Shown piece after piece: positions 8,209 through 53,345 of a DNA stretch of 64,000 nt. The stretch lies in contig CM000430.1 in NCBI GenBank assembly GCA_000165345.1, forward strand, positions 384,001 through 448,000, given 5' to 3'. The notes under the pieces were generated by a model. That model did no database searches and was not told the DNA's origin. It saw only the letters and a program-made list of their open reading frames with translations. A program made the position numbers and the translations under genes. Each line of letters starts with the position of its first letter. Positions within the stretch are counted from its first letter, which is position 1.

Positions 8209-11200
8209 ATGTCATTTCATATTGAACAGAAGTCACTATCGTTTGAGTTGTGGGAATACTTCTATAATGACGGAGATGAAAGGCTCATTTCTAGTGATTG
8301 TTTTCAACAATCTACCGAAAACAAGTATTCTAGGCTTGTATTTGCACTTGTATCACTTTTGAATGGTAAAGATATGAAACAAAATTACTTAAAGGATTTC
8401 CACCTGGAAAAAAGTACAGCAGAGCTATATGAGATTTGTAAATACGATACTTTTTCAACAAAAAATTCAGATGATAAATGTATTTTCAATTTATTCAGCA
8501 AGCTCAAACAACATGTTGGCGATTTAAATACATGTTTTGTTGGAATAAATGAGTTCGAGTCTTTAATCAATTTTCCAGAAATTAATGAGAAATACATAGT
8601 ATATTTAATATTTTGGGTTGTAGTTAAATTTTTTGAAAGTATAAAGATTGTTGAAAGTGATAGAGAATTTAATCAAATTGTCACTTGTTATTTGAATTTA
8701 GCATACAATATTGATCATTTAATTTGGGATTTAATTGTATCAGATTATATACTTTCATTAAGAAAAAAAGGAATTATTGATGTTAATTCAATTACTATCG
8801 AGTTGAATGACGAAGTAGAATCACTTTTTTTTTTATTAGTGAGCCCATATAGTATTTGTCCGACTTTATGCAGCTTATTCTTATTGTTAAAATCAAAAGT
8901 AATCAGAAGCAGGTTTAAATATATTAATGAAAATTGCTTCTTTGTTTCAGTTATAAATCAAATTGTTAAATTGATCGCAAATACTTTGAAGGAGATTAGC
9001 CCAGATATGGCAGAGCTTTCTTTTACAATAACTGTATGCAGAATGATTTCAAATATATCGTACGATTTTAATAATGAGCTAATTCAGCAACTATATCTAT
9101 TAAGGGATTACCAAAAATGCATGATTCCAGGTTTAAAGAGAATAAATCCAATATTTGTCGACAGGTTCATTTTATATAGTTTCATTTCAATTGAACAATT
9201 TTGGATAAAAATTTCTAAGGATGAAGGATTTTTTTCATCAATAATAAACCACATTCCTCCATTAGAACTTTCAACTTCAATTATATCTCTCATGAATCCA
9301 TATAAAGAATTTTCCAAATACATAGTTATTTTAATTGTTCTTTTCTCATTGAATAATCAATTATCTAATACAGGTAATGTAAGTAAACACGCGATAGAGA
9401 TTATGAAAAAGTTAGTAGAAAATCCCAAAGAGCCTGTTGAAATACTATTAAAATATTTTCTATTCCCAGATTATACAAGAGATTCAAGCGCAAAATCAAA
9501 TTTATATATATTTTTCAGACTTTTATCAAATAATATTTGCAATTCTTCAGTTTCCTTGGGCATAGTGAAAAGCATCTGCAACTTGATTCAAATACACTAT
9601 TTTCCATTATCTGAAACATTTCTTTACAATTATTTGGAATCATTCCCCAAATTAGTTAAATTATGTAATGTAGACAAAGAAACCTCTAGATTTGATGATG
9701 AAATAAAATTAAATCTCTTGAGCTTAATGAATTTTGAAGGATGTATACTAATAGATGAAATGTACTGGCTTAATTCGAGCCTTGTACATGTATTATTAAA
9801 TGAGATTAATATTGAGTTTGAACATATTTTGCCATTTATTCATTCCATTTCTTTAAGTATAATGAATATACAATCTACCATAAACAATCAAATTTTTGCT
9901 AACTATGGTTATCCAATTAATAAAGTTAAAACTTCACAAAATAAAAGCAATTTCAAGGTTAATGAATTACATTGCCAGAAAATCATTAAATCTTCAAATT
10001 TTTTATTTAAAACGAAAAATATTGACATTATAATAATATTAATATTAGACCACATATCCGATTGGATTAAAAAGAATGATAAATGTATTTCTTTTGAATG
10101 GTTATTAAAGCAATCAACCTTATTCATTAATTTGAATATAAATAATGAATATGTGCAAGGATACTTCTCAATATTTTTTATTTATTTGTTTTCAAGAATA
10201 ATTGAAGCAGATAAATTAGATAGAAAGTTAATAACAATAAACTTTCATATTATCCCCTGGAAGGGGATATTAAGGTGGATTGATTCTTGGGAGGGAGTAT
10301 TTCTTCAGAGTGTATTAAACCCTAGAACCTGGAGGGTGATATTCTCTGAAATTACTGCAATAATTATCCCAGAATCTCTTATAATACCATCAATTCCAAA
10401 CAGTTTTTCTGAGATTCAGTCTCAGTATTTTTCTCTGAGTAATGTAAATCCTTTTAAAGAAAAAATAAATTTATGGTTAAAGGATCGTAAGAGTTTGTTA
10501 GAATCTCTAAAAAGTAAAGTAACAACATTAGGAAGCGTTAAGTCTACGTTAAAATGGCTTGAAATGTTTTATTTTGAACCAAATATGGCAGTTTATTTTA
10601 CACTAGAATGCATTTTTATACGCGAATCAGTTTATGTTAAAGAACAGCACTTTCAAGAATTATACTTTGAGATATGTTCAAATGAAGCAAAACTTAGAGA
10701 ATTTATTACAAATCCTGATACATATATCAAAAATATTAGTAACTATCTATCTGAAGAGAGTTCAATTGAAATAATTTGCAATATTTCGCTTATAATGCTT
10801 TATTTTCATGAAGTAATAAAACACAAAAACCCTATTATTAACCATTTTCAGAGTGTGGATTTTGATATTTTTTGTATTATCTGGAACAAATATGTAAATT
10901 ATAGTAGAACCGAAAGTCAATTAACAAGTAGACAGATTTCAATATTTTTTTCCAACATTTTCTGTAGAAATACAAATATTGCTCAGCAAATTGTAGAACA
11001 AGGATTTCAATATAAAAGTCTCAATAATCGTATTGATTTCAATGTTTATCTCGAAAGAACACGCTCATTTATTGATAGAATTTGCTATATTACACCACAA
11101 ATACTCTGTGAGCATACTATTCTACCAAAAATAGCAAATAAGTTGGACAAACTGCTGAATACAAGATCACTTATTGAATTGTGGGGAAAATACAACGTAA

Positions 11201-11631
11201 CCGATAGTAAAGTATTTTGTTTAGATTTTAAAATAGAAAACCAAATAATTCAGTGTGTTTCATTATTATCATGGCTCTCAAACATAATTATCTCCCCATC
11301 AAAGTCAGCCCATTATTCATCAGAAAGTTCTTCGAATGAAAAGTCAGCATTTTTACCTGTTGCAGAGAGATCTGTTGTTAGAGTTCTATGTATAACTCAG
11401 GATATAATAAATTCCAAACTTGATAGCCGAATTTACCACAATTTAATCATCAATTTTAACATCTTATTAAAACACTCTGCGCACTTTATTATTTCAGTAG
11501 CAAACTCATTTCCGCAACTAAATAAGGCATTAAAAGATACACTATCTGCATTAAAGCAATTTATGAGCGGCCACCCATTATCAAATTCTTCAATTCACCA
11601 CACTATTAATAACATTGATGAGATACTTTAA
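8209..11631 (+). CDS. Large hypothetical protein (1140 aa), Ile/Leu/Asn-rich, probably alpha-helical solenoid
   Basis: Single uninterrupted 3.4-kb ORF in 70%-AT DNA with ATG at 8209. No catalytic motif was recognised. Confidence 0.6.
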   Translation: MSFHIEQKSLSFELWEYFYNDGDERLISSDCFQQSTENKYSRLVFALVSLLNGKDMKQNYLKDFHLEKSTAELYEICKYDTFSTKNSDDKCIFNLFSKLKQHVGDLNTCFVGINEFESLINFPEINEKYIVYLIFWVVVKFFESIKIVESDREFNQIVTCYLNLAYNIDHLIWDLIVSDYILSLRKKGIIDVNSITIELNDEVESLFFLLVSPYSICPTLCSLFLLLKSKVIRSRFKYINENCFFVSVINQIVKLIANTLKEISPDMAELSFTITVCRMISNISYDFNNELIQQLYLLRDYQKCMIPGLKRINPIFVDRFILYSFISIEQFWIKISKDEGFFSSIINHIPPLELSTSIISLMNPYKEFSKYIVILIVLFSLNNQLSNTGNVSKHAIEIMKKLVENPKEPVEILLKYFLFPDYTRDSSAKSNLYIFFRLLSNNICNSSVSLGIVKSICNLIQIHYFPLSETFLYNYLESFPKLVKLCNVDKETSRFDDEIKLNLLSLMNFEGCILIDEMYWLNSSLVHVLLNEINIEFEHILPFIHSISLSIMNIQSTINNQIFANYGYPINKVKTSQNKSNFKVNELHCQKIIKSSNFLFKTKNIDIIIILILDHISDWIKKNDKCISFEWLLKQSTLFINLNINNEYVQGYFSIFFIYLFSRIIEADKLDRKLITINFHIIPWKGILRWIDSWEGVFLQSVLNPRTWRVIFSEITAIIIPESLIIPSIPNSFSEIQSQYFSLSNVNPFKEKINLWLKDRKSLLESLKSKVTTLGSVKSTLKWLEMFYFEPNMAVYFTLECIFIRESVYVKEQHFQELYFEICSNEAKLREFITNPDTYIKNISNYLSEESSIEIICNISLIMLYFHEVIKHKNPIINHFQSVDFDIFCIIWNKYVNYSRTESQLTSRQISIFFSNIFCRNTNIAQQIVEQGFQYKSLNNRIDFNVYLERTRSFIDRICYITPQILCEHTILPKIANKLDKLLNTRSLIELWGKYNVTDSKVFCLDFKIENQIIQCVSLLSWLSNIIISPSKSAHYSSESSSNEKSAFLPVAERSVVRVLCITQDIINSKLDSRIYHNLIINFNILLKHSAHFIISVANSFPQLNKALKDTLSALKQFMSGHPLSNSSIHHTINNIDEIL

Positions 11632-19169: not shown

Positions 19170-19484
19170 NGNCANTACATTNAATANATCAACNNTACTT
19201 NNAGNNNNNNANNTNNNGNNANTTTNNCGNNGGAGATNGATTGTNNAGNTAGNANTNANCTNGTTNNNTTAATNNAAANNTCAATTNNGGAATCTGANTN
19301 NTNTTNNNANTANNANTANNNNTAANNGNANAANATTTNNANGNNNTTNNTNGAAGTTNANTANNTAAATCNNCAGNNNTTGAAAATGANTTNNNANNAT
19401 CGCTTNNTNNNTTTNGNNNNTNNTNGCTNGATTTGCAAGCNCNTGAAANNTNNNANNNCNANATANNNNTGCNAATNNGGANAN
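19170..19484. other. Block of interspersed ambiguous bases (N), probably low-quality or unresolved consensus
   Basis: About half of the positions are n, mixed base by base with called bases. Isolated n also occur at 19889 and 20087-20088. The block overlaps the 3' end of the 990-aa minus-strand gene. Confidence 0.9.
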
Positions 19485-22253
19485 TTTCTGTGGATCCATA
19501 TCTATTGGGCTTTCAAATTCGATTTTTTCACTGTCTTGCGACAAATAATTTATTTCAAATTCACTTTTTATTAACAAGCCTAACATCTCCATAGCTTCAT
19601 CATCTATTTTACTATAGTTATTCAATTGAGAAAATATAACATTTTTAATCACTTCATAAATATAAGGATTGTATGGCACAATAATTTTCAAAAAATTGTT
19701 GTAAATTTGTTCCAAAACAATAAACAAATTGTAAATTGAACCAAAAACTCTTCTTATTCTTTTGCCCGTTTTCTTATTTACAAACTCTCTCTCTTCTATT
19801 AAATTGCCATCTAGATCAGTCCCATCATAAATAAATTTCGACACCTTGTCAACCAGTTTGACTTTATTGAACAAATTCTCCAATGTTGAATATGACCCNA
19901 ATCTGATTCCTAATTCAAAAATAGTTTTACACTGAACTGAAATGTGGCTATTTTCTCTTCTCTTTATGAATACATCTAAAAGCCATACCCAAAATTCAGT
20001 ATTCAAATAATTAATTAATTCATGCTTTTCGTCATAAAGTAATGTTGTTTTAATTATCGTTAATAACGAAACCATATATGCTGTTTNTTTACTGTTTGTA
20101 TCAATCTCAAATTTTGAGATAATAAACTCGCAAAACTTAGTTAAATACGGCTTGATAGCGTTAATAATTTTGGTTTTCAGGCACCCTATGACATTAATGT
20201 TCACAGAAAAAGCAAGATTTATTACTTCTTCCAATATACCGAGAGATCTCAATTTCAATATGTAAATATTTTCGTTTATTATGTTATTAGAATTGTGAAC
20301 TGATAATTCACAAAAAATCTTTAGCATTGATGAATCAATTATTAGATTGTTCAAAAACTGCTTAGACTTTTCTAAAATTTGATAAATTGAGAAATTTTTA
20401 ATCATATCTCCATCATTTGTCGCTAATATCAAACAATTATTGACTTTAGTTCCATAAATTGTGTCATCTTTATTTTTTCCAATAAAATTTGTTTCTCCAT
20501 TCAGTATTTCATTTGAATTAAATCTTTTTCCAGAATTTTCATATTCAAAATTATTGTTCACGCCTATTTTTTTTTGAGAAGTTTTAAAACTTGAATTGTA
20601 CAATTGATTACCTTCTGTTATAGAATGTTCAATATCAACAAACTTGACTGAATTAGAAATTTCACATTCTGCTCCGCACGATAGATTTAGATTTTTGTTC
20701 AAGTCATTCTGAAAATATAAACTTCTTAGATTGTTTAACTCGCTAGAAAATGTGGGCCATTTTATTCCAATGCTAGTCATATTTAAAGGTAACCCAGTAT
20801 GCTCTGGCTTCAAATATTCTACTAATCTAAAAATAACCTCAATTATTCCGGAAGCTACATTTATAATATCGGGCCTAAACTTGAATTCTGGTTTCTCTAC
20901 AAAATCTTCTTGGTTATAACTCATTACATCCAAAAGGGGAGAAAGTAAATTCTGAATAAAGTCCGACTCAATAACCCATTCATATATTATTGGCGAAATC
21001 CCAACTTCTAAAAGATGTTCTTGAATATACGGCTTGTCTGTACTAAATTCGCTAATAAAGTTCACCCGGTTTGATTCCAAATACTCAAAATCCAGTATTG
21101 AGCTTGAATATTCTCCAAATTTTGATTCTTGTTGGCAATTATTCCCAATAATTCCAAAAAACCTTAAAAAAAAATCCTGTATAGAGGAATAATTAATGAA
21201 CGGTATAATTACCAAAGGCCCATTTAATTGAAGAAATATTGAAGTGAATTCTTTTTGATGTTTTGAAAAGCAAATTTCTAATAGTCTGCCTATATAGAAC
21301 GGAGTTTGGTTGCTGTCACAAACAATGGGATTATCCTTAAGCAAATATGAAATTGGATGCTCCTCTACTAAATTGTCACAGTTAGCAATTAAGCTCATAT
21401 TTTTTAAATAGTTTACTATCTTCATGATTAATTTCGGAATTTGTTCCTCTGAAAATATACTGATTATTTCCTTAGAACTCTCCAGTTTAGAACACCTGTT
21501 TGTATTGTTCGATTCTAGATTAAACTCAGGAAAATTCTGCCTTATTAACCAAGCATAATCAACTTCAGAAACGGCTCTCGAAATAGGCAGCAAAAATGAA
21601 CTTGCTTTTTCATTCAAATTGATATTTATAAATGGTTTTTCAGAGAATAATATGTTGTTTGGACTCACACCTAGTAAATAATAATAAAGTATCGATGAAA
21701 TTACATTGTAATTCTGGAAGTCGCACTCAAGTTCCTTTTCATAAAACAAATTACTCACAGGAAGTAAAATATCTATCATTGAATCTATAATAAGGCTTCC
21801 AAATCCTTCAATTAAGAAATTTGAAATGCAATCTTGAAATAGAGTATAAAAATATAATAGATTTTTGTTGCCCCCCCCAGAAGAATAATGAATTTCTGCT
21901 GCATGGTCTTTCAAGATATTCAATATTGATGAAATTATTTTTTTTTTAGTATCAATTTCGATATCAATTTTACTTAAATTTGGCCCATCAGCTACAATTA
22001 ATCGGTGGCTTTCTAATCCGGCATCATGTAAGTTTCTTGTACAAATAGTATTTGTTTGGCTATCCCTTGATGAATAAAAATTTATGGAACTGCCATTTAT
22101 TTTTGAGATGTTTATCTCGTTATGATATATGGAAGCTTCATCCAAATTATTATCGGAGGCATTTAAATTAAGTTCTTCTAAGCTCTGCCTTGATATTATT
22201 CGCATGTTTTCATTAATTTTACGTTTACCTACCATTTCATTATAAAACTCCAT
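19281..22253 (-). CDS. Large hypothetical protein (at least 990 aa); the 3' end is unresolved because of N bases
   Basis: Long minus-strand ORF with ATG at 22253. Its C-terminal 70 or so codons fall in the N block, so the true stop cannot be read. No recognised domain. Confidence 0.55.
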   Translation of the reverse strand: MEFYNEMVGKRKINENMRIISRQSLEELNLNASDNNLDEASIYHNEINISKINGSSINFYSSRDSQTNTICTRNLHDAGLESHRLIVADGPNLSKIDIEIDTKKKIISSILNILKDHAAEIHYSSGGGNKNLLYFYTLFQDCISNFLIEGFGSLIIDSMIDILLPVSNLFYEKELECDFQNYNVISSILYYYLLGVSPNNILFSEKPFININLNEKASSFLLPISRAVSEVDYAWLIRQNFPEFNLESNNTNRCSKLESSKEIISIFSEEQIPKLIMKIVNYLKNMSLIANCDNLVEEHPISYLLKDNPIVCDSNQTPFYIGRLLEICFSKHQKEFTSIFLQLNGPLVIIPFINYSSIQDFFLRFFGIIGNNCQQESKFGEYSSSILDFEYLESNRVNFISEFSTDKPYIQEHLLEVGISPIIYEWVIESDFIQNLLSPLLDVMSYNQEDFVEKPEFKFRPDIINVASGIIEVIFRLVEYLKPEHTGLPLNMTSIGIKWPTFSSELNNLRSLYFQNDLNKNLNLSCGAECEISNSVKFVDIEHSITEGNQLYNSSFKTSQKKIGVNNNFEYENSGKRFNSNEILNGETNFIGKNKDDTIYGTKVNNCLILATNDGDMIKNFSIYQILEKSKQFLNNLIIDSSMLKIFCELSVHNSNNIINENIYILKLRSLGILEEVINLAFSVNINVIGCLKTKIINAIKPYLTKFCEFIISKFEIDTNSKXTAYMVSLLTIIKTTLLYDEKHELINYLNTEFWVWLLDVFIKRRENSHISVQCKTIFELGIRXGSYSTLENLFNKVKLVDKVSKFIYDGTDLDGNLIEEREFVNKKTGKRIRRVFGSIYNLFIVLEQIYNNFLKIIVPYNPYIYEVIKNVIFSQLNNYSKIDDEAMEMLGLLIKSEFEINYLSQDSEKIEFESPIDMDPQKXSXXAXXXXXXXFXXLANXXXXXXXXXAXXXXHFQXLXIXXXNFXXXXXNXXXLXXXXXXXXXRFXN

Positions 22254-23025: not shown

Positions 23026-24138
23026 ATGTTTAAAGGAAACGTAATTGATTTTAATCGTTATTCAACATTAATTGATGAAAGACTTAAAATTAAATCAAAA
23101 GAAAGGATGCGTCCAAATGACTTGTTCTCGGACCCTTATTATCAAAAATCTGACTTTGAAAAAAATTGTATTGATACAATTTCAGAAAATACAAGTAAAA
23201 ATATGTTAAAAAATATATGGAATCTTAGTCAAGAAAAAGCAAATATAAATCCATCTGAAACTTCCTCCAATTGTAATAAATTTTATAATTATGAAAATTA
23301 TTTGGGGATCAAAAGAAGTGGTTGCAAAAATACCACTGTTGAAAAGAAGTCAGAAAGTAAAATGGAAGAATTTATTAAAAATACTTCTGCAAGGAAGCAG
23401 AAACTATTTAGAGAATTTTCAACTGGAATTGTGCTAGGAGATGAGGGAGATTCGAGGGAGAAAATGTTTTCCTACGTTTCTAATATATTGAGCAATCAAA
23501 ACAACAAAGAGAAGGATGATAATGAAAATTTTAAGTTGGCTTACCCTTTTTATTCAAATATTTTCAACATTGAAAATCATACTTGTAAATCTGAGCTAAG
23601 TAAAAGATTCTTGCTTGAACGGCGAATAACGAATAACTCCGATATTGGAGACGAGTGCGCTGCAATGCTACTAACTCCTGGAACACTTAAATACTATAGT
23701 TTTGATAGAGAAACTAAAACTTACAACGCAATTAAAGATTTAAGCAACAATAACATATCTGATGAATACAATTTGGACAATGTTACTCCAAAATTTACTC
23801 CATTACAAAAAAATTTGAGTTCTAAACTACATGGAAGTGACTTCTATAATAATGCGGCAATTAGAAGTTCAGAAACAATGTACATAATTAGATTCCGCCT
23901 GAAAAACATTAGCTCTCAAATTAATGAGAAGATTATTAAAAATGCTGCTGCAAATTGTGGTGCGTTTGCCTATCAAATAATGTTTGAATTTGATCCAATT
24001 AAATGGTGTTCTAAAGGTATTGCAACAGGCATGCTTAGATATTCTGGCGATAGCTTAGATGCTTTTAAAAGAGAATTAATCGAATTATTCAAGATTGAAG
24101 TTGAGATCCTTAATGGAATTCAGGAAAGTTCAGAATAA
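23026..24138 (+). CDS. Hypothetical protein (370 aa)
   Basis: Intact ORF with ATG at 23026. Low-complexity N-terminal two-thirds and a more ordered C-terminal 110 aa (IIRFRLKNISSQ...KWCSKGIATGMLRYSGDSLDAFKRELIELF). Not recognised. Confidence 0.5.
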   Translation: MFKGNVIDFNRYSTLIDERLKIKSKERMRPNDLFSDPYYQKSDFEKNCIDTISENTSKNMLKNIWNLSQEKANINPSETSSNCNKFYNYENYLGIKRSGCKNTTVEKKSESKMEEFIKNTSARKQKLFREFSTGIVLGDEGDSREKMFSYVSNILSNQNNKEKDDNENFKLAYPFYSNIFNIENHTCKSELSKRFLLERRITNNSDIGDECAAMLLTPGTLKYYSFDRETKTYNAIKDLSNNNISDEYNLDNVTPKFTPLQKNLSSKLHGSDFYNNAAIRSSETMYIIRFRLKNISSQINEKIIKNAAANCGAFAYQIMFEFDPIKWCSKGIATGMLRYSGDSLDAFKRELIELFKIEVEILNGIQESSE

Positions 24139-43030: not shown

Positions 43031-46000
43031 TCATTTAGTTTTGTTCCATGGCCCCTCTTCTACTCCAGGACAGATCGACTGTGCCATGTGCAGGTTGTTT
43101 TGTGAAATATATTTTGACGTATGGAGATTGCTTGCAGCCTTGTTTGAGAGCTCACTGGCTATTGGTTCTATTGTTTCGCCTTGACCTGTAGGATTGTTTA
43201 ACATTCCCGAATTAGATTTCATTTGTAGTATAATCGGCCCAATATCTGGAAGCGACGAGAGTAGACTTCCATCACGATAGCGCAGATTAAGTAGGCCGTT
43301 CAGAGTTACAAACGCAGTTTTCAGAAATGACTCATTTACGCCAAATGTGCACGTTTCTCTAACCAACTCCGCGTAATTTTGCACATGCTTAAGCATCTCA
43401 TAGTACTCTGATTGTTGCTCATGAAGTGTTCTGAAATAAAAGTTTGCAGCAGCCCCATCAAATTGTATAGGCCCAGGGTTGCAAAAGCGGTCTTGCATTG
43501 CCCAATGTTCCTGAACGATTTTTAACCAACGATATGCTTTACCTTTCAGATCCACTTCACTAGAAGGAATTGTAGGAATGTTGCTTGGGAGTTCAGGATG
43601 GGTCTCATCGTTGGAAGGAACAATTTTCATTAGGCAATTAAATGGTATTGCTGTCATTCTCCAATCGGAAACATCGCCGCACAACCCTCTAATAGAACAA
43701 AGATGGCCTGTTAGTCCGCTCTCAACAACTATCGAAGCAAAATGCCCAAGCGCATACCCTAGCTTTGCATCAAACTGTGATGGCATAGCAGATCTACCCT
43801 GATATCCAAAAAAGTGTGTAAACGGCTGAAAATTGCCATTATATTTATTATCTTGTTTTCTTTTCTTAAGCTCCTTTTTTATCATTAAAACAAGAAGTGC
43901 CTCGGTCTCTATCGCGGAAAATGCAGAGTCAACATCTAATGAAAGTATTTCTCTTCTAATGAACCTAGGTAATGACTTAAATAATGCGAGACTCCAGGGA
44001 GTCATTTTAGAAGAGTATTTACTTCCATCAAAGCTATCTGTAGGGCTATGTTCCTGATTCGCAGCCGAACTTTTGTTATCAGCCACATCTACGCGAGAGC
44101 TTTTTTCTTGGCTATTTGTGTGATCGGACAATGTGGGGTGATCGCTGTGTCCCAAACTCATCATTTCAGACATAAATAATTTCATCTCGGAATGTTCTTC
44201 AGCGAATCTTCGTAATTCATTTATTTCAGAAATTAAAATCTTCATATCTGGTAAATGTGAAAGTAATGCATCTGGAATGAGTACAGTTCCGAAGTTCTTT
44301 CCAAACTCCGCTCTCTTACATATTACATCTGCCACATCTTCTACGATGTGAACAAGAGTTTTATCAGCTGCTCCATATTCTTCAGCAATTATTACAACAT
44401 TTGGATGTGTCTGTAGTGCGCACTCCAGAACTTCATTTGAAGGTTGCCTTCCCATTAATCTAATAAAATGCCAATATTTAGGCATTGAAGCAGCATCCGT
44501 TAATACATTTCCAATTAAGCTTGCATACAATTTAGTGCTTGAATCAAACCCTACGCATGCCTCTACTAGATCATTTGCTAAGTTGTTAGACGCAGTTGCT
44601 GGGACGCCAACAACCTTAGTATTACAGTTATTTTGTAGAAAATACTCTGCCAAGATTGCGCCCTGGGTCATTCCAAATGCAGAGCCACACAATACAAGGC
44701 CATCCAAATGTAAACTTTCACAAACCTTTCTAGCCTTTTCCAAATTCTCTTTCGAAACTAAACACTCTGTATACGTTCTTCCAATTAATTCCGATCCTCC
44801 TTGATTTGGCAAAAGATCTACATCTTTCTCAGTAAGTGTAATATGCTTCCCTTGCAAAAATCCTTTAACTCCATAAAAGCCCAAACATCTTCCCCTTACC
44901 ATTTTCAGACGGTGGTATAGTCCCCATACCACATTTGCAATTCCAGGTGCTTGTCTAGACATAAGCAATACTCCTATTCTCAACCCTACATTGGGCTCTT
45001 CAGATGAAATGTCAAGTTGCGCTTCTTGGCAATAAAAGTGATTTGAATTACATAAATGAGGATAACAGGTTGTAATCTGTCTTTTTATCAGAGGATCAGA
45101 TAAATTATATTGAGTAGTCGGTTTACATCTTGCTTTAAGGTGGGTAAGTAGCAGTGGCAACGGAGGTCTATATGTTGTGCGATAAAGTTGGAGAGAGGAG
45201 AGGGTTCCCTGAATTCTATTAAATACACCTCTTTTCCCTCCCCCATTATTTGGTTGTACAATATTTATATCAGTATCTGTAACTGAGGCATCCTCTCCGC
45301 ATAATAAATCTTGTAACTCCGGCGTTCTTACAATATAAGGGATAGTTTCAGAGCATGGGCCTTCGAATTGTAAAGGTCCAGGCGCCCTATATAAATCTTG
45401 AAACTTCCAAATATCTCGAACCTGTTTTAATAGTTTGAAAAGTGGCCCATTCAAATCGACTAACTGACGAGTAACTGCAGCATAGCACTGACCGTCTTGT
45501 CTGGATTTTTTAACTTCCATAATTCTAGTAATACTTATACCGCATGCTTGCCAACTAAGAGGATTCCCTTCTAATCCTCTTATAACTGCCAAGTAACCAT
45601 TCATACCTTTATAAACCAACGCTCCTGCGCAATGGCCCAGTGCGTAACAATAGTTAGAATCAAAATTAGATGGCATGGCGCATCTTCCTTCATAACCCAA
45701 ATAATGATGCATCATTGTAAATCCAAAAGGCATCAGTATTGAGCCATTTGACTTATTTGAAATTTCTACCTGATCTGAAATTGTTTCCTTGGTTTGGCCA
45801 TGTTCAAAATCATAATAGAAAGATGTTCCATGCCTCCTATGTAACTCTGCTTCAACAAGTAGTATAAGTAATCTCTCTGTTGCTATTTTTGCAACTTGTA
45901 TTTGGCCAGTAGCCTCTCTATCAAGTAACAATTGCTCTCTAATATTTTCTGGAAGGTACTCCCAAATTTTTGCAGAAGACTCCGAAAGACAACTGCATAT

Positions 46001-47311
46001 CTTTTTATCAAAGTCGTCAGGTGAAGCTTCCTGATCGCATTCAGACCCCTCATACTTTAACTTATCAAGGATTTCATTTAATTCTTGAATTAAAATTTTC
46101 ATTTCTGGGATAAACTCAATTAAGCCTTCAGGTATTAATATTATGCCATACATTTTGCCCATTTTTGAACGCTCTTCCATTAAATCTACAATATTCTTCA
46201 CTATTTCAAATAATGTTATTCCTTCTTGTTCAACTTCTTCTGCAATGAAAACAATATTTGGTCTTGTTTGCAATGCGACTTCCAGAGCCAAATGCGATGC
46301 TGATCTACCCATAACTCTTACGAAGTGATAGACATTTTGTGATGTACAAATGTCTGAGCAAAGATTACCTACGCACTCAGCGTAAGTCCTCGCAGCAGTA
46401 TCAAATCCAAAAGAGACTTCAATAGCAGGGTTTTTTAAATCTCCATCAATAGTTTTTGGGACCCCTACAATACAAAAATTTTTGTTTTTCTTTGCCATGT
46501 AATCCGCGATCAACGCAGCATTTGAATTTGAGCCATCACCTCCAATAACAATTAATCCATGTAATTGAAGCTGCTCGCAAACTTTTTCAACTCTTTCCAA
46601 ATCTTGCTCTCCATTAATTCTCCCTCTACCAGACCAAAGCATATCAAAACCTCCTTGGTTTCTAAATCGATCCATTAATTCATCTGAAATAACCTTATAA
46701 GTTGATTTGAAAAGACCATCTAACCCACCTAAAAATCCGAATAGCTGGCTATCAGGGTGATGATTCTTAATAAAATCATATACACCGCAAATGACATTAT
46801 GTCCGCCAGGTGCAGGACCACCTGATAATACAATTCCAACTCTAAGAGCATGGTCTGAATTCTCCGAGTTCTTTGATTCATCTCGAGTTATTTCAATGCA
46901 TGGTCTCCCAAATGTGTTCGGTAACAATTCTTTGAGTTTATTCTCATCTTTTTGGATCAAGTCAGGAATTTCAATCTCTTTTATTTTTATGCAGTTTGAA
47001 GATAAGGAATATGGCAATGTTGGCACCCATTTTTGTCTTTCTAATTGCACGGGACTAAAGTTTTCAAAGAGATCTGCTGAGTGCAAATGAGGTTTTCCAC
47101 CCATTGACAATTTAAATGAGTCTAACCTAGTTGCAATATTACGTTCTATTGAATCTCTTCTACGAATATGCTTTTGAGACGTTATCGCTTTAGAAATTAA
47201 TGGAATACTACGTTCTTTATCGATATGAGTGTCTTCAAGTATTACAGCCAAACTTCTAAGCCGGCGAATAGCATTTCTTTGGCTTCTGTTCATTTCTCCA
47301 TTCAAAAACAT
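43031..47311 (-). CDS. PFK: Pyrophosphate-dependent phosphofructokinase, fused tandem double-domain form (1426 aa)
   Basis: Single 4281-nt ORF with ATG at 47311. The N-terminal half has the catalytic motifs IVIGGDGSNSNAALIADYMAKK, KTIDGD and VMGRSASHLALE. The C-terminal half repeats the fold (VGVPATASNNL, LMGRQPSNEVLE) but has CGSAFG in place of GGDGS. The fused 1400-aa-class PPi-PFK architecture is typical of apicomplexans. Confidence 0.9.
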   Translation of the reverse strand: MFLNGEMNRSQRNAIRRLRSLAVILEDTHIDKERSIPLISKAITSQKHIRRRDSIERNIATRLDSFKLSMGGKPHLHSADLFENFSPVQLERQKWVPTLPYSLSSNCIKIKEIEIPDLIQKDENKLKELLPNTFGRPCIEITRDESKNSENSDHALRVGIVLSGGPAPGGHNVICGVYDFIKNHHPDSQLFGFLGGLDGLFKSTYKVISDELMDRFRNQGGFDMLWSGRGRINGEQDLERVEKVCEQLQLHGLIVIGGDGSNSNAALIADYMAKKNKNFCIVGVPKTIDGDLKNPAIEVSFGFDTAARTYAECVGNLCSDICTSQNVYHFVRVMGRSASHLALEVALQTRPNIVFIAEEVEQEGITLFEIVKNIVDLMEERSKMGKMYGIILIPEGLIEFIPEMKILIQELNEILDKLKYEGSECDQEASPDDFDKKICSCLSESSAKIWEYLPENIREQLLLDREATGQIQVAKIATERLLILLVEAELHRRHGTSFYYDFEHGQTKETISDQVEISNKSNGSILMPFGFTMMHHYLGYEGRCAMPSNFDSNYCYALGHCAGALVYKGMNGYLAVIRGLEGNPLSWQACGISITRIMEVKKSRQDGQCYAAVTRQLVDLNGPLFKLLKQVRDIWKFQDLYRAPGPLQFEGPCSETIPYIVRTPELQDLLCGEDASVTDTDINIVQPNNGGGKRGVFNRIQGTLSSLQLYRTTYRPPLPLLLTHLKARCKPTTQYNLSDPLIKRQITTCYPHLCNSNHFYCQEAQLDISSEEPNVGLRIGVLLMSRQAPGIANVVWGLYHRLKMVRGRCLGFYGVKGFLQGKHITLTEKDVDLLPNQGGSELIGRTYTECLVSKENLEKARKVCESLHLDGLVLCGSAFGMTQGAILAEYFLQNNCNTKVVGVPATASNNLANDLVEACVGFDSSTKLYASLIGNVLTDAASMPKYWHFIRLMGRQPSNEVLECALQTHPNVVIIAEEYGAADKTLVHIVEDVADVICKRAEFGKNFGTVLIPDALLSHLPDMKILISEINELRRFAEEHSEMKLFMSEMMSLGHSDHPTLSDHTNSQEKSSRVDVADNKSSAANQEHSPTDSFDGSKYSSKMTPWSLALFKSLPRFIRREILSLDVDSAFSAIETEALLVLMIKKELKKRKQDNKYNGNFQPFTHFFGYQGRSAMPSQFDAKLGYALGHFASIVVESGLTGHLCSIRGLCGDVSDWRMTAIPFNCLMKIVPSNDETHPELPSNIPTIPSSEVDLKGKAYRWLKIVQEHWAMQDRFCNPGPIQFDGAAANFYFRTLHEQQSEYYEMLKHVQNYAELVRETCTFGVNESFLKTAFVTLNGLLNLRYRDGSLLSSLPDIGPIILQMKSNSGMLNNPTGQGETIEPIASELSNKAASNLHTSKYISQNNLHMAQSICPGVEEGPWNKTK

Positions 47312-47888: not shown

Positions 47889-50800
47889 ATGTATTTCCAA
47901 CGCCAAGAAGTAATTGGATCGCCACCTATTCTTGCATCAATAAGATCAATTTTTTCTAATGAATCTAAGAAAGACAAATTGGGTCCAACATACCAGCTTT
48001 TTGTTGGAATAGGATATATATTTTATTTAATTATTTTTATGATTGTCATTACTAAAGTAATTCAGCCTAATGAAGAATATTCGTCAATATATAGTATTCA
48101 GAATGTACTAAAATCTGCAAATTGGAACCCTGACTTATCAACACCTAAAAATTCTATGCTATATAATATTCAGACAAATGGAGATATTCAAAATTGGATA
48201 TATTATGTTTTGGGCCCACCACTTTTAAATGGTCATATTGCAGATCAAAACCAAATTATTGGAGCCTCTCTAACAAAATGTGTCGGAGAATATATCAGTA
48301 ATGCAGTAGAAAATCAATATATTCCTTCAGACTATGGTGTTGTCAAGGTTCTCAGCCAAAGTAATTGTAAAAAAACCAAATTAAACTTAGTTTCAAGGAT
48401 TGCTTCTCCATATAAATACATGGAAGCTTTTTTTGATTCTTCTAAGGATTACGTTATTCAAGAAATCGAATCCAATCCTGAATTGCCAGTATTACCAAAG
48501 TTATTTAATAAAACAGATATAATTTCCTATACAGCAGAACTATTATTTTATAATGGAAATATTGACACATACAGCGTTGTATCATTTTCGTTCAATCTTT
48601 CTATCTTCGGTACATTTATCGTTGATGTATTATCTCAAAGCGCTTCGCCTATCAAAAAATATATTGGGTTTCCATGCGATGGAAGTTGTAATATAAATAT
48701 TACTCAGATAACTAAATCTGCGCTTTTTTTTACATATTGTGTTGTTTTTATTCTTCATTTGATATCAGGAATTATACTGCTCATTTCTAGTGCATCAGGG
48801 TCCCCAAGTTATTCATCCAAAGAGTCTGAAAGAAACGGTTTGGGGATTGAATCTTGGTCAAATTACTTTAAAGAAAGGTCGCTTTCTATTGCAATTCGAA
48901 TTTCTCACTTTTCTGTAATTTTATTATGGATTTCATCCGCAGTTTTAGTACAACTACTTCCAAACCAATCCCTAAAAAATATTTTAGAGCAAAGTAACCA
49001 AGCAGCAGAAAAGATCAATTTAAACCAATCATCCGAAATGCCACTATTAAATTCCATTATCTATACAATTAAAATTGCTTCAATTATAAAATTTACTGGA
49101 ACCGTAATTGCATGTATTGCATCACTTTTAATGCTGTTTAGGATCTTTCAGATTTTTTCATCTCTTTTTTCTCAAGTTAACGTTCCGCTAAAGACAATAA
49201 TGTTATTTTTTAGAAAAATTATTGGAATATTTTTTCTTATCAACCTAATTATTTTGACATTGGCACTTGGAATTATTATTTATTTACATATTGACAAGTA
49301 TTCACCAAATATTAAAGGAATTAAAGAGTCTATAAGTACCTCAATTTTTTCTATTATGCTTGCACCAATTTCTATTAGCCTGCAGGAGGAAACTACCGAA
49401 GAGACAATCTATAAAGTTCCAACAGTTATTTTTTTATCAATCGTATTGGGGATTCTAACTTTATACCTCCTATTAATTCCACTATCAACTGCCACCATAA
49501 TGTTTATTTACAATGAAGTTGAAATTCTTCAATCTTTAAAACAAAACACAGATAATATTTACACGATCAAAACGACTCTTAGTGCTTGGATTCAACAAAT
49601 TTTTTTTCTTTCAACATTCTGGCAATCAAAAAAAGTCTGGTCATTTTCGTCTCAATCGAATGACAAGGCCATAAAAATAAATCATGATATACAAAATGAG
49701 ATTGAGGCACAACACCAACAAGAAAGTAACAGTTTTGCAAAAGAAATCATTTTGAACCAAGGGGTAAACAAAACTAATAAAATGGACGAAAAAGGCATAA
49801 ATCAAGTGATACAACAAAAAAAGAAACAGTTTAAAAAATTTTTTGAGTTGCCTCCAAAGCTTGAATATATTCCATACCATCTTTTTTTCTTAATTGTACT
49901 ATTTTCCATAGTTTCTATACTATGGATTATTAATATAGCAAACTACCAGCTTCATACTGAAACAGGCGAAGTTATTTGGAAGATTCTCGATTCGCCTTTT
50001 AGAGCAAGATCATTCTATACATTTGATCCAACTTTGGATTTCTTCCCATACATGTTTAAAGATTGTTCTAAAAAAGATGAAAATCTCAATTTCTTATATG
50101 ACAAAAACCAGTTATCTAAAATTCCAGGAGAACTTCTCTACGGGCTATATCAGTCATACAGGCTCACAAATATTACTTCATTAAGTCACCTAAATTCATG
50201 GATTCAAAAAATTTTTATTCCGTTGATAAAAACAAAAAATACTCAGATTTCAGAAAAAAAGAATTTTTTGATAGATCTTGGCCATCCAACACTCTATTCA
50301 ACAGTTAACCCAATGTTATTATTTAAACAACATTTTAGTCCCGTTAAATGCAATTCTAATCCAATTTCGTCTGGATTATATTTAAGTACAATCTCTAGAT
50401 CAAAAAGCTCATTAAGCATTAAAGACATTTCAAATTTCAATCCATTGTCAGTAAATAATGTCCCAACTTCATTATCTGTTCCAAAGACCCAAATTCAAAA
50501 AATCAGAAATATATTCGCACGTATTCTTAAATTAGTGAATTTTAATCAGGGAATATTCAGTAGAGAGTTAACTACTTCTGCGGAAAAGAGTTCTCATATG
50601 GAGTCAACTCTATCAAGCTCAGGAGTAGATAGAATATTTTTTTTATATGCAGGTAAAGAATCAGAAATTTCCGAACAGTTTAATAAATCTTTACATGGGA
50701 ATGATGAAGGAAACTTATTTTGGGTTATAAGGTCTTATTCTCTTTCTACTGGAAGCGATGTAAATGTCGACTTAATCACTTCATTAGATTCGTTTGCTTC

Positions 50801-53345
50801 AAATGAAGACTTTAACATTCCTTTTGATGGTTTGTTTGATTATAGTATGGATACTCTAGAAATTTACTTCCCGATTATTATTCCAAATCAAAATTCTGTT
50901 TCATTGATAAAGTTAAAATTTGAACTTCTACGTACTGGGAAAATTGAAATTGAATATTCTTTTGATTTTGTGAAACATGAATGGATCAAACAAACTCTTG
51001 ATCAAAATGGGATTTATATTGATTCAAAAAATCAAGAAATTTCAGAAGATGTTGATGGAAATGAAAATGGAAGTGAAAACCAAGTCAAAGACTCGAATTC
51101 AAATTCAGGAATCTGGGTTTTTTCATTTGTTCTGATTGGGATACAGTGTTTTATTTTCCTAATATTCCTTATATTGGTCATTTACAATTTTTATAGAAAA
51201 AGATTATTAAGAAAAAGACTAATGAATCAAATAAATTATAAAATGGATATTTCAGAATCAGAAAGTGAAAGTGAAATACAAAAAAAAAAGAAAATTCGAA
51301 AACTTGGAATCAGAAAAATTGCAAGAAAAATCGGTAGAAAAGAAATAGAAAACGAGCAAACAACAATCAAAAAACAAAAACTAGAAACATTTGGAAATGT
51401 ACACTTAAATGAAAAAAAAAATGTTTTAGAATTTAGGAAAAAAAAGTTAGCACACAAGAAACAGAACAAAGAAATTAAAGAGGAAATCACTGATTCCAAG
51501 CAAATAGTTGAGGAAGAATTATACGATGAAGATATATTAAGTTTGTACAAGCTAAGTAATTTTAACATTTTAATTATTGTAATAATGTTAATTGCATTTT
51601 TCGTATTATTTTTTTCTTCAATCGCATATTATATTTTAATAATATCCACAAAAATTTCGATTAACATTAATTCAATTGATATTGAGGGTGGTTTTAATTC
51701 GATTGCTTCATCACATGGAGATCCATTGCCCTGGGAGATAGAAATATCAAACTTGAATGATATCAATTCGAAACTAAATATGATCGGTTCTAGTTCAGGT
51801 TTTTATAACGACAACGTGTTTTCCTTCAGTAATTTATTTGAAACAATAAATAACATACAAGAAATAAGCGGATACTTTGAGATGTTTGAAATAATCGGAG
51901 TTTTTCTTATTATCACATATTTATCCATTATTTTTATATACTCCAGCTTACTTGTTGATCGTCATCGTCGTGCAAAAATATTAAAGATGAGGCGTTACAT
52001 GGAAAAAACTGGGAAGAAACTAACTGGAAATTCATTCGAATCCCTCTCAGTGTTTACATTCATGGATACAACATCCCAAAGAGGTTTTAGCTGGAATGAT
52101 GCAAATTACGCACTTTTTCCTATTTTTTGTGTTGTTGCTTCAATTATTCTGATTTTTTCTTTGACAGGATATTCGATATTAGGCTATCAGGAGGCAACAT
52201 ATTTTTCATATTACTATTCAGTAATAAGCTCCCTATTAATGATTTTTAATTATAACAGTGTAAAGCAAGTAATGATGACGTCAATTACTCCAGATATATC
52301 AATTAGATTTAAATCAAATATTATTACATTTATTTGGAAGCCATTATATTATTTATTAACGTTTTTTACCTTTAATTTTATTTTAAAGGCATTAATTCCT
52401 GCTTCCATAATTTTTTATATGCGTTCAGTTGCATCTAAGAACTTGCAAATTTCACAGGATACTCTACTTTCAAAGTTAAATAATGTTGCAGTTACAAGAC
52501 CATCAATTCCAGTATTCACAAATGATTGCATCTCATTAAGAATGAAATTTTTTATCAAGGCACTTTATAAAAAATTAGGAAAATTTAAAAAATTTGATAT
52601 GAATTTAATGAAAGGTAACACAATTGAAGAGCAAAATGAAACAGAAGTAAATTTAACGGAAGGGAATCCTGACTGGATCTTTGCAAAATTAATACCGGAG
52701 CTTTTTAATGAAATAATTCATTATAAACTAAATATTGCAGAGCTTGTCAACAAAGACCAGCAGGGAATACAGGAAATAAGAGATTATTTAGGTAATATAT
52801 CACTCCAATTATTGTTAATTCAAGAACATTTAGTGAAGATTGAGTTTTTGAGATGTAAACTTTCAATGATAAGACAAGAATTGATGAAAATTGAAGATGT
52901 TAAAAAAGATATATCAAGAGGAAATAGAGAGTCTCAACACTATATTGATCGACTTTTACAGCGATTAATGAGTATTAATGATGAAATCGAACATTTGGAT
53001 GAAAGTAACAGAGTTTTAGGGCAAGAAAAAGAAACTGTTAAACAAAAAACATCAAGCGTCGCTGCAAACTATACTCTTCAAAAAGAAAAAGAAAAATTCT
53101 CAACTAATTTCTTGTTTGAATACGGTAATTCATATGCCAAAACATTATTTGAAAATTCCAAAATTAACGATATTGTCAGTAGCGATGAATATTCCAACGA
53201 AGATTCAGATGAACGCAAAGATCTTGATGAAACAAATAGAAATAGGGTCTCTGCAAATAATAACACAAAAAAAAGTATAATTAATTACATCGATAAAAGC
53301 GACAAAGACGATAGCAAAGTCAAGAATATTTGGAAAAGAGACTAA
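47889..53345 (+). CDS. Very large multi-pass membrane protein (1818 aa) with C-terminal coiled-coil; possibly polycystin/TRP-like
   Basis: Continuous 5.4-kb ORF. TM1 LFVGIGYIFYLIIFMIVITKVI is followed by a 200-aa Cys- and N-glycosylation-site-rich loop, then a cluster of about 6 TM helices. A second TM cluster lies between about aa 1060 and 1420. The C-terminal coiled-coil (LQLLLIQEHLVKIEFLRCKLSMIRQELMKIEDVKKD...) and a Lys-rich linker (RKRLMNQ...KKKKIRKLGIRKIARKIGRKE) follow. No channel signature could be confirmed by eye. Confidence 0.6.
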   Translation: MYFQRQEVIGSPPILASIRSIFSNESKKDKLGPTYQLFVGIGYIFYLIIFMIVITKVIQPNEEYSSIYSIQNVLKSANWNPDLSTPKNSMLYNIQTNGDIQNWIYYVLGPPLLNGHIADQNQIIGASLTKCVGEYISNAVENQYIPSDYGVVKVLSQSNCKKTKLNLVSRIASPYKYMEAFFDSSKDYVIQEIESNPELPVLPKLFNKTDIISYTAELLFYNGNIDTYSVVSFSFNLSIFGTFIVDVLSQSASPIKKYIGFPCDGSCNINITQITKSALFFTYCVVFILHLISGIILLISSASGSPSYSSKESERNGLGIESWSNYFKERSLSIAIRISHFSVILLWISSAVLVQLLPNQSLKNILEQSNQAAEKINLNQSSEMPLLNSIIYTIKIASIIKFTGTVIACIASLLMLFRIFQIFSSLFSQVNVPLKTIMLFFRKIIGIFFLINLIILTLALGIIIYLHIDKYSPNIKGIKESISTSIFSIMLAPISISLQEETTEETIYKVPTVIFLSIVLGILTLYLLLIPLSTATIMFIYNEVEILQSLKQNTDNIYTIKTTLSAWIQQIFFLSTFWQSKKVWSFSSQSNDKAIKINHDIQNEIEAQHQQESNSFAKEIILNQGVNKTNKMDEKGINQVIQQKKKQFKKFFELPPKLEYIPYHLFFLIVLFSIVSILWIINIANYQLHTETGEVIWKILDSPFRARSFYTFDPTLDFFPYMFKDCSKKDENLNFLYDKNQLSKIPGELLYGLYQSYRLTNITSLSHLNSWIQKIFIPLIKTKNTQISEKKNFLIDLGHPTLYSTVNPMLLFKQHFSPVKCNSNPISSGLYLSTISRSKSSLSIKDISNFNPLSVNNVPTSLSVPKTQIQKIRNIFARILKLVNFNQGIFSRELTTSAEKSSHMESTLSSSGVDRIFFLYAGKESEISEQFNKSLHGNDEGNLFWVIRSYSLSTGSDVNVDLITSLDSFASNEDFNIPFDGLFDYSMDTLEIYFPIIIPNQNSVSLIKLKFELLRTGKIEIEYSFDFVKHEWIKQTLDQNGIYIDSKNQEISEDVDGNENGSENQVKDSNSNSGIWVFSFVLIGIQCFIFLIFLILVIYNFYRKRLLRKRLMNQINYKMDISESESESEIQKKKKIRKLGIRKIARKIGRKEIENEQTTIKKQKLETFGNVHLNEKKNVLEFRKKKLAHKKQNKEIKEEITDSKQIVEEELYDEDILSLYKLSNFNILIIVIMLIAFFVLFFSSIAYYILIISTKISININSIDIEGGFNSIASSHGDPLPWEIEISNLNDINSKLNMIGSSSGFYNDNVFSFSNLFETINNIQEISGYFEMFEIIGVFLIITYLSIIFIYSSLLVDRHRRAKILKMRRYMEKTGKKLTGNSFESLSVFTFMDTTSQRGFSWNDANYALFPIFCVVASIILIFSLTGYSILGYQEATYFSYYYSVISSLLMIFNYNSVKQVMMTSITPDISIRFKSNIITFIWKPLYYLLTFFTFNFILKALIPASIIFYMRSVASKNLQISQDTLLSKLNNVAVTRPSIPVFTNDCISLRMKFFIKALYKKLGKFKKFDMNLMKGNTIEEQNETEVNLTEGNPDWIFAKLIPELFNEIIHYKLNIAELVNKDQQGIQEIRDYLGNISLQLLLIQEHLVKIEFLRCKLSMIRQELMKIEDVKKDISRGNRESQHYIDRLLQRLMSINDEIEHLDESNRVLGQEKETVKQKTSSVAANYTLQKEKEKFSTNFLFEYGNSYAKTLFENSKINDIVSSDEYSNEDSDERKDLDETNRNRVSANNNTKKSIINYIDKSDKDDSKVKNIWKRD

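Follow-up and report, generated by a model that had tools for sequence, protein, structure and literature searches.

Calcium signalling drives motility, secretion, invasion and egress in apicomplexan parasites. In the polycystins PKD2 (TRPP2) and PKD2L1 (5T4D, 5K47, 9DWQ, 5Z1W), the chain runs from a first transmembrane helix (TM), S1, through a TOP ectodomain of ~215 amino acids (aa) to S2-S4, S5, a pore helix and S6. TgTRPPL-2 (TGGT1_310560), TgTRPPL-1 and the apicomplexan proteins resembling transient receptor potential (TRP) channels (Prole & Taylor 2011) are large, possess a big loop between TM1 and TM2 and are remotely similar to PC2. PKD domains are annotated in the TRPPL proteins of Toxoplasma gondii, and for TgTRPPL-2, which has 2191 aa and 14 predicted TMs, PC2 is found by HHpred; other apicomplexan TRP homologues have 6-19 predicted TMs (PMC3194816). 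For Cryptosporidium, no recognisable homologue of IP3R/RyR, Cav or TPC is known, and only two TRP-like candidates per species are listed: XP_627518 and XP_627866 for C. parvum, XP_002140701 and XP_002139610 for C. muris, XP_668155 and XP_667205 for C. hominis (PMC3194816). Here, we analyze a further Cryptosporidium gene, located at 47889..53345 (+) of a window of 64,000 nucleotides (positions 384,001 to 448,000 of contig CM000430.1, assembly GCA_000165345.1). It is an uninterrupted, intron-less open reading frame (ORF) with an ATG start, encoding 1818 aa followed by a stop codon, and its coordinates and length are exactly those given in an earlier note made from the sequence alone. The product is identical to C. 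parvum Iowa II EAK88780.1 (UniProt Q5CTQ0), annotated as "hypothetical protein". All elements described below are on the forward strand (+), with nucleotide positions counted in the window.

Among known systems, PKD2 and PKD2L1 come closest in fold, and the TRPPL proteins of Toxoplasma in biology. We propose, with a probability of about 60%, that the gene product belongs to the polycystin-type (TRPP, group-II TRP) channel subunits, from which it has diverged strongly, and that it has 12 TMs with both termini in the cytosol. Its N-terminal part (module I, aa 1-560) has the same order of elements as PKD2 and PKD2L1. Likenesses to PKD2 can be found in FYNGNIDTYSVV, in a stretch like IKLFKFINF in S4 and in IYNEVE after S6 (TYSEVK in PKD2), and a conserved helical region in the cytosolic C-terminal part is common to both proteins. 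The Cryptosporidium protein differs from PKD2, however, in having twice the length, six additional TMs and another ectodomain; the identity is 13-14%, and Pfam found no EF-hand in it. Like TgTRPPL-2, it is a large protein with a big loop between TM1 and TM2 (1818 aa and 12 TMs versus 2191 aa and 14 TMs), and no PKD domain like those annotated in the T. gondii proteins was detectable by Pfam.

The fold of module I was assessed with an AlphaFold2 (AF2) model of aa 1-600, which was built from 10 sequences and is of low confidence (predicted local distance difference test, pLDDT, 46.9). In a Foldseek comparison of this model with the Protein Data Bank (PDB), 48 of the 48 matches at E<=1e-3 were PKD2, PKD2L1, PKD1 or TRPML. 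The best match was PKD2 (9dwq_A, E=5e-8, ~570 aligned columns, 13-14% identity), followed by PKD2L1 (4.6e-7), TRPML3 (4.5e-5) and PKD1 (3.7e-4), with TRPML1-3 all present; alignments of ~570 columns cover essentially the entire S1-TOP-S2...S6 chain. No structure of another 6-TM family, of a transporter or of TMEM16 was among the 50 matches listed. The earlier note had read the protein as a candidate channel reminiscent of polycystin/mucolipin-type TRP channels, and comparison of its fold with PKD2, TRPML and TMEM16 had been set beforehand as the test that could refute this. A channel fold was returned, with no TMEM16 or transporter among the matches listed, and for the N-terminal module the reading is supported by the 48 group-II TRP matches as well as by the Polycystin_dom and aa 215 motif observations that follow.

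Three sequence observations agree with this fold in position. The Pfam family Polycystin_dom (PF20519) matched aa 216-251 of the C. bovis and C. ryanae orthologs with E 0.016-0.023, at profile positions 160-195 of 199, i.e., over the last strands; these matches, seen in two of 10 orthologs, scored 14.7-15.2 bits and thus stayed below the gathering cut-off of 23.6. For the motif at the end of the PKD2 TOP domain, the best-scoring ungapped site of the whole protein is aa 215 (TAELLFYNGNIDTYSVVSFSFNLSIFG), directly before TM2; its score was reached by none of 300 composition-preserving shuffles. Furthermore, a local hhalign comparison at the same region scored 22.8 (shuffles, 10.5+-2.4). Because of the Foldseek matches and these three position-concordant observations (Pfam, motif scan, local hhalign), we assign aa 1-560 to a polycystin-type S1-TOP-S2...S6 module, at the level of a fold prediction and not of curated family membership. 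Hydropathy peaks coinciding with AF2 helices, the count of positive charges on the two sides of the membrane and the span of the Foldseek alignments all give module I a six-helix core with cytosolic termini. Its first ectoloop is predicted as a large alpha-plus-beta ectodomain, and the channels matched at E<=1e-3 all bear a TOP domain.

Several results speak against the assignment to polycystin-type channels. Pfam, applied to the whole protein, to its halves and to all orthologs, returned nothing above threshold, and therefore the protein is not filed as an annotated family member by sequence. Sequence searches of the PDB with a single sequence (phmmer) and with profiles (hmmsearch) found nothing even at E<=10. 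The TM-scores of the aa 1-600 model against PKD2 were 0.28-0.37, low values that are expected as helix packing was poorly predicted. The collinear hhalign of the N-terminal half with PKD2 was marginal, its score being reached by 6 of 100 shuffles with a narrow PKD2 profile (vertebrate, members 68-100% identical) that limits sensitivity. The aspartate of the PKD2 filter (Leu-Gly-Asp) is missing from the candidate filters of both modules, which have Leu-(Ala/Ser)-Pro and Phe-Asn-Tyr-Asn, respectively, and the low conservation of the first candidate pore loop is unusual for a working filter. As to individual Pfam families, PKD_channel (PF08016) gave no match at E<=1 or E<=10, and sub-threshold matches to TMEM132_C, LURAP and MLANA were dismissed as spurious, being due to a single TM with a basic stretch.

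One full-length ortholog is present in each Cryptosporidium species sampled (10 species aligned), with identities from 99% (C. tyzzeri) down to 37-38% (C. muris, C. andersoni and C. serpentis, which are the gastric species); full-length orthologs throughout the sampled genus mean that the gene is real and under selection. Outside the genus, an exhaustive hidden Markov model (HMM) search with aa 640-1720 against 1.84 billion representative proteins retrieved, apart from Cryptosporidium proteins, a single match (P0016, 177 aa, E=2.7e-4), which aligns only to the Lys-rich linker aa 1101-1215 and is probably compositional. As far as sequence comparison reaches, and with the C-terminal half (aa 640-1720) searched exhaustively, the protein is restricted to Cryptosporidium. 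It is not among the listed Cryptosporidium TRP homologues, since neither XP_002141877 (its C. muris ortholog) nor XP_665359 (its C. hominis fragment) is one of the accessions in that list; surveys of the BLAST or Pfam type miss the gene because it has diverged beyond sequence detection. In the literature on the accession numbers or on Cryptosporidium polycystins, we found nothing specific and no later description.

Hydropathy and AF2 secondary structure concur in 12 TM helices, six in module I (aa 37-60, 277-303, 334-357, 396-424, 436-468, 507-539) and six in module II (aa 661-687, 1074-1100, 1224-1256, 1331-1356, 1404-1431, 1489-1511). With both termini inside, this model obeys the positive-inside rule (36 Lys/Arg in inside flanks versus 11 in outside flanks). 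It also places outside all six invariant cysteines of the TM-connecting loops (131, 160, 263, 267, 726, 821) and the three best-conserved glycosylation sequons of these loops (N761 in 10/10, N207 in 8/10, N236 in 7/10 orthologs); the cytosolic C-terminal region contains one more invariant cysteine (C1656) and one sequon found in 7/10 orthologs (N1636). Two Lys-rich linkers, aa 581-650 (19% Lys) and aa 1101-1215 (21% Lys), are poorly conserved, with 14-15% identity to C. muris. The first of them (49629..49838) is the variable cytosolic linker between the modules, and the second (51189..51533) is a Lys/Glu-rich cytosolic insert between S2' and S3' with 15% identity to C. muris. The layout drawn in the earlier note was right in its single N-terminal TM (aa 37-60), its loop of roughly 200 aa (216 aa, 61-276), its Lys-rich linker (of which there are two), its later group of TMs and its C-terminal helical region, but not in its TM count: about six TMs had been placed after the loop, where we find five, module I having six in total. 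The loop had been called rich in Cys and Asn; it contains four cysteines, invariant in the 10 orthologs, and 9.7% Asn compared to 7.5% in the whole protein, which does not bear out that description. The second TM cluster exists and comprises six TMs, although the 386-aa ectoloop between its first two had been overlooked.

Module I starts with S1 (aa 37-60; 47997..48068), a hydropathy peak that corresponds to an AF2 helix at aa 33-58. It is followed by the polycystin/TOP-type ectoloop 1 (aa 61-276; 48069..48716), identified by AF2 secondary structure, the Foldseek matches to PKD2 and the conservation of cysteines and sequons. These 216 aa are predicted to form two to three helices and then about five beta-strands, and they contain the four invariant cysteines 131, 160, 263 and 267 and the conserved sequons N207 and N236; the model thus depicts the TOP domain of module I as extracellular, disulfide-bonded and glycosylated. 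Within ectoloop 1, the PKD2-like motif NIQTNGDIQNWIYYVLGPPLLNG (aa 93-122; 48165..48254) belongs to the best-matching pair of windows between the two ectoloops, and aa 98 in this region is the third-best site in the PKD2 motif scan. The motif of the C-terminal beta-strands of the polycystin domain described above spans aa 215-249 (48531..48635). S2-S6 (aa 277-539; 48717..49505), assigned by hydropathy and AF2, are collinear with PKD2 in Foldseek and, weakly, in hhalign; S4 corresponds to aa 396-424 with the invariant R418, S5 to aa 436-468 and S6 to aa 507-539. Candidate pore loop I (aa 469-506; 49293..49406) was assigned by AF2 secondary structure and an hhalign register of low confidence. 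In this register, a helix (aa 472-491) precedes the invariant L491-x-P493 where PKD2 has L-G-D, so the putative filter reads L-A/S-P; there is no Asp at the PKD2-aligned position, and an acidic residue follows about five positions later in most orthologs. Few structured parts of the protein are less conserved than pore loop I (24% identity to C. muris). S6 is followed by a conserved helix (aa 540-580; 49506..49628; 61% identity to C. muris), in which hhalign aligned YNEVE with the similar YSEVK of PKD2.

The region aa 650-1515 (module II) is, on balance and somewhat more probably than the contrary, a second, degenerate copy of the module I layout, i.e., a tandem repeat. The earlier note had remarked that the protein "could equally be a duplicated channel", and this is the most likely reading of the C-terminal half, although homology of the second module is unproven because its AF2 model is unusable. 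Several individually weak lines of evidence converge on a repeat. Module II repeats the element order of module I with the same in/out parity: a single TM precedes an ectoloop and five further TMs, with a candidate pore loop of the re-entrant kind. Just upstream of S2', at aa 991 (EIYFPIIIPNQNSVSLIKLKFELLRTGKIEIEYSF, aa 991-1025; 50859..50963), lies the site that ranks second in the whole protein for the PKD2 TOP-end motif, with a score of 15.9 versus 5.1 for the third-best site (whole-protein P ~0.05), and the local hhalign score at this place, 16.3, was reached by 0 of 20 shuffles (11.2+-1.5). The best pair of windows between ectoloop 1 and ectoloop 2 joins aa 93-122 to the motif NITSLSHLNSWIQKIFIPLIK (aa 761-790; 50169..50258), with P ~0.02-0.03 within the ectoloop-by-ectoloop space; both are of the helix type 'D-I-Q-N-W-I...G-P-P-L-L', which is also like 'EDFWKF..GSLLDG' of PKD2. 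S1/S1' and S6/S6' are within the top six of 515,042 windows compared between the two halves. The top whole-protein matches of the PKD2 S5, pore-helix and S6 motifs follow each other in the order of these elements (aa 1408, 1435 and 1483). Finally, the collinear hhalign score of the C-terminal half with PKD2 was reached by 3 of 100 shuffles, which is no worse than the value for the N-terminal half, whose fold is validated by structure comparison (6/100).

The repeat begins with S1' (aa 661-687; 49869..49949), recognised by hydropathy and AF2, the PKD2 S1 motif having its best whole-protein match at aa 657. Ectoloop 2 (aa 688-1073, 386 aa; 49950..51107) was delimited by conservation and an unreliable AF2 prediction of helices followed by strands; it contains the invariant C726 and C821 and the invariant sequon N761, and we infer that it is an expanded, divergent polycystin-type domain. 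Note that in the three gastric species, two inserts add ~100 residues to this ectoloop (near 50300-50700; alignment columns ~813-990), and the C-terminal tail is longer than in the intestinal species. S2' (aa 1074-1100; 51108..51188; hydropathy, AF2) is separated by the Lys/Glu-rich insert from S3'-S6' (aa 1224-1256, 1331-1356, 1404-1431, 1489-1511; 51558..52421; hydropathy, AF2, topology), whose connecting loops include a conserved one of 74 aa outside (aa 1257-1330) and a basic one inside (aa 1357-1403). Candidate pore loop II (aa 1432-1488; 52182..52352), a tentative assignment by invariant columns, AF2 secondary structure and the motif scan, is dense in invariant residues (G1432, Q1434, E1435, Y1442, Y1443, S1444, S1447, S1448, L1449, N1454, N1456, K1459). 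Two short AF2 helices (aa 1437-1452, 1455-1463) lie here between the last two TMs, and F-N-Y-N stands at the place of L-G-D-I in PKD2.

Not all comparisons favour a repeat. The hhalign scores of the N-terminal half against the C-terminal half, and of sub-regions as well, were within shuffle noise; the scores of the PKD2 S5, pore-helix and S6 motifs were not above the shuffle null; and the AF2 model of the C-terminal half (pLDDT 34.5) yielded no fold match. Moreover, the strongest local match of the C-terminal half to PKD2 (aa 1398-1430; window 52080-52178; 24.9 versus 12.1+-2.4 for shuffles) aligns with the start of PH2/S6, a register in conflict with the topology. An alternative register of module II, in which aa 1331-1356 would be S5, 'SLSVFTFMD' the pore helix and aa 1404-1431 S6, was rejected on topology, even though no other scored better in local hhalign: the Lys/Arg-rich loop aa 1357-1403 would come to lie outside, S5 would be misoriented, and the number of TMs ahead of the C-terminus would be odd. 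The start of the fifth TM of module II, 'NDANYALFPIF', resembles 'EEANRVLGPIYF' at the start of PH2/S6 in PKD2, yet topology makes this helix S5-like; the resemblance could be due to chance or be the trace of a rearrangement.

Downstream of S6', a cytosolic segment (aa 1512-1565; 52422..52583) has hardly changed within the genus (69% identity to C. muris); its last part, LRMKFFIKALYKKLGKFKK, is a basic amphipathic helix that could, by its appearance, be a calmodulin- or lipid-binding site. The most conserved region of the protein is helical and coiled-coil-like (aa 1594-1705; 52668..53003), with 71% identity to C. muris and 95% to C. bovis, and is a candidate assembly domain. The helical region at the place of the C-terminal coiled coil of the earlier note is thus present, whereas its coiled-coil nature was put to a weak test only: the heptad periodicity is modest (best windows reached by 1-3.5% of shuffles), and the database matches are weak, all of them to coiled-coil families. 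The C-terminal tail (aa 1706-1818; 53004..53342), delimited by alignment and conservation, is variable, of low complexity and acidic/Ser/Asn-rich.

By analogy, channel activity and cation conduction may be ascribed to the 1818-aa protein. If the protein is a natural tandem, a four-domain pore could be built by two chains, as in two-pore channels; if module II is not pore-forming, four chains would assemble through module I. The conserved helical region aa 1594-1705 may drive this oligomerisation, as the C-terminal coiled coil does in PKD2, and the oligomer would form a cation pore, with either two tandem chains or, through module I, four chains. By analogy with TgTRPPL-2 (PMC8216714), such a pore could pass cations, possibly Ca2+, through the plasma membrane or that of an internal store. 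The two-pore channels TPC1/TPC2 would be like such a protein in their two 6-TM P-loop repeats, cytosolic linker and dimeric four-domain pore, provided that module II is a true repeat; however, their repeats are Nav/Cav-like and lack a TOP ectodomain, and no similarity to TPCs was seen in the searches made. PKD1 and PKD1L3 share with the Cryptosporidium protein the TOP-bearing polycystin fold, TMs in addition to the six of the core and a pore that departs from the canonical one; their C-terminal coiled coil, which serves assembly, has a candidate counterpart in aa 1594-1705. In PKD1, though, the channel-like core comes after the five extra TMs and PLAT; in the Cryptosporidium protein, the extra TMs stand behind the core, and no PLAT, GPS or REJ domain was found.

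The readings of the protein differ mainly in what is made of its C-terminal half and of its filters. Tentatively, and with the odds rather against so specific a picture, the protein could be a tandem polycystin in which two TOP-bearing 6-TM/P-loop repeats dimerise via the C-terminal helical domain into an asymmetric pseudo-tetrameric pore, with a filter of Pro/Ala (module I) and Asn-Tyr-Asn (module II) rather than acidic residues; it would be restricted to Cryptosporidium or too diverged to be found elsewhere, and would be a main pathway for cations or Ca2+. Another possibility, about which we are doubtful, is that aa 1-560 are a single polycystin module forming a homotetrameric pore and that aa 650-1565 are an unrelated, genus-specific 6-TM appendage with a coincidental likeness of layout. 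The C-terminal half is indeed without fold match and Pfam signal, was found only in Cryptosporidium in the exhaustive HMM search and is not significantly similar to the N-terminal half in hhalign, and the motif matches that connect the halves are each borderline (P ~0.02-0.05). Against this possibility stand a module II that mirrors module I in each element with correct in/out parity, two independent ectodomain motifs that match at corresponding start and end positions, a collinear PKD2 score at least equal to that of the N-terminal half and the two short AF2 helices between the last two TMs.

Alternatively, the protein could be a non-conducting or regulatory subunit resembling polycystin-1, a receptor or auxiliary partner that co-assembles via its C-terminal helical domain with another TRPP-like protein of Cryptosporidium, as PKD1 does with three PKD2. 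Besides the lack of the Leu-Gly-Asp acidic residue in both candidate filters, this is suggested by the contrast of a poorly conserved pore loop I with well-conserved ectodomain motifs and C-terminal helical region, by two large, glycosylated and disulfide-bonded ectodomains, by PKD1 chains among the significant Foldseek matches and by two other TRP-like proteins of the genus as possible partners (PMC3194816). Nevertheless, we regard it as an unlikely, if serious, alternative: PKD2 and PKD2L1 outrank PKD1 (5e-8 versus 3.7e-4), Pfam found none of the PLAT, GPS and REJ domains, and the S5'-S6' loop is as dense in invariant residues as a functional pore loop would be. That the protein is not a channel at all, but a transporter, a TMEM16-like scramblase or a membrane scaffold whose polycystin match is an artefact of a poor AF2 model, appears very improbable. 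The low model confidence (pLDDT 46.9) and the lack of any sequence match reaching a curated threshold would fit this, but every Foldseek match at E<=1e-3 came from one family, with no transporter or TMEM16 among the 50 listed, independent sequence motifs are concordant in position, and the six TMs, the large S1-S2 loop and the pattern of disulfides and glycans fit a polycystin.

The window has ~30% G+C and long intron-less ORFs. The neighbours of the 1818-aa gene are housekeeping genes (double-length phosphofructokinase, EMC1, NGP1-type GTPase, Dis3, DHHC palmitoyltransferase, RPN7) and provide no functional context. The phosphofructokinase (43031-47311 (-), 1426 aa) adjoins the gene upstream and is transcribed divergently; as it contains two phosphofructokinase stretches, it is presumably a fused or duplicated enzyme. 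Three ORFs of 1140, 990 and 370 aa (8209-11631 (+), 19281-22253 (-) and 23026-24138 (+)) are uncharacterised, with no Pfam family at E<=1e-4. A MORN-repeat protein is encoded at 6431-8035 (+). The 2-kb block in which it lies has the highest G+C content (0.37) and the strongest GC skew (+0.26) of the window, probably because of the Gly/Tyr-rich codons of the repeats.

Judged by fold and layout, the gene product is probably of the polycystin type; its 12-TM design, probably a tandem, is unusual, and its filter is non-canonical. The gene is thus a third, previously uncatalogued TRP-like candidate in Cryptosporidium, conserved across the genus. If the second module is a true repeat, this would be, to our knowledge, the first tandem (two-repeat) polycystin/TRP architecture described, no literature search having been aimed at earlier examples; it would bear on the question of how 6-TM channels become multi-repeat and would represent a TRP-family counterpart of the two-pore channels. 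Blockers of the TRPPL-2 channel of Toxoplasma inhibit Toxoplasma growth (PMC8216714). The Cryptosporidium protein is a plausible drug or antibody target, as two of its domains are large and extracellular and the host has no close homologue of it (identity to human PKD2, 13-14%).

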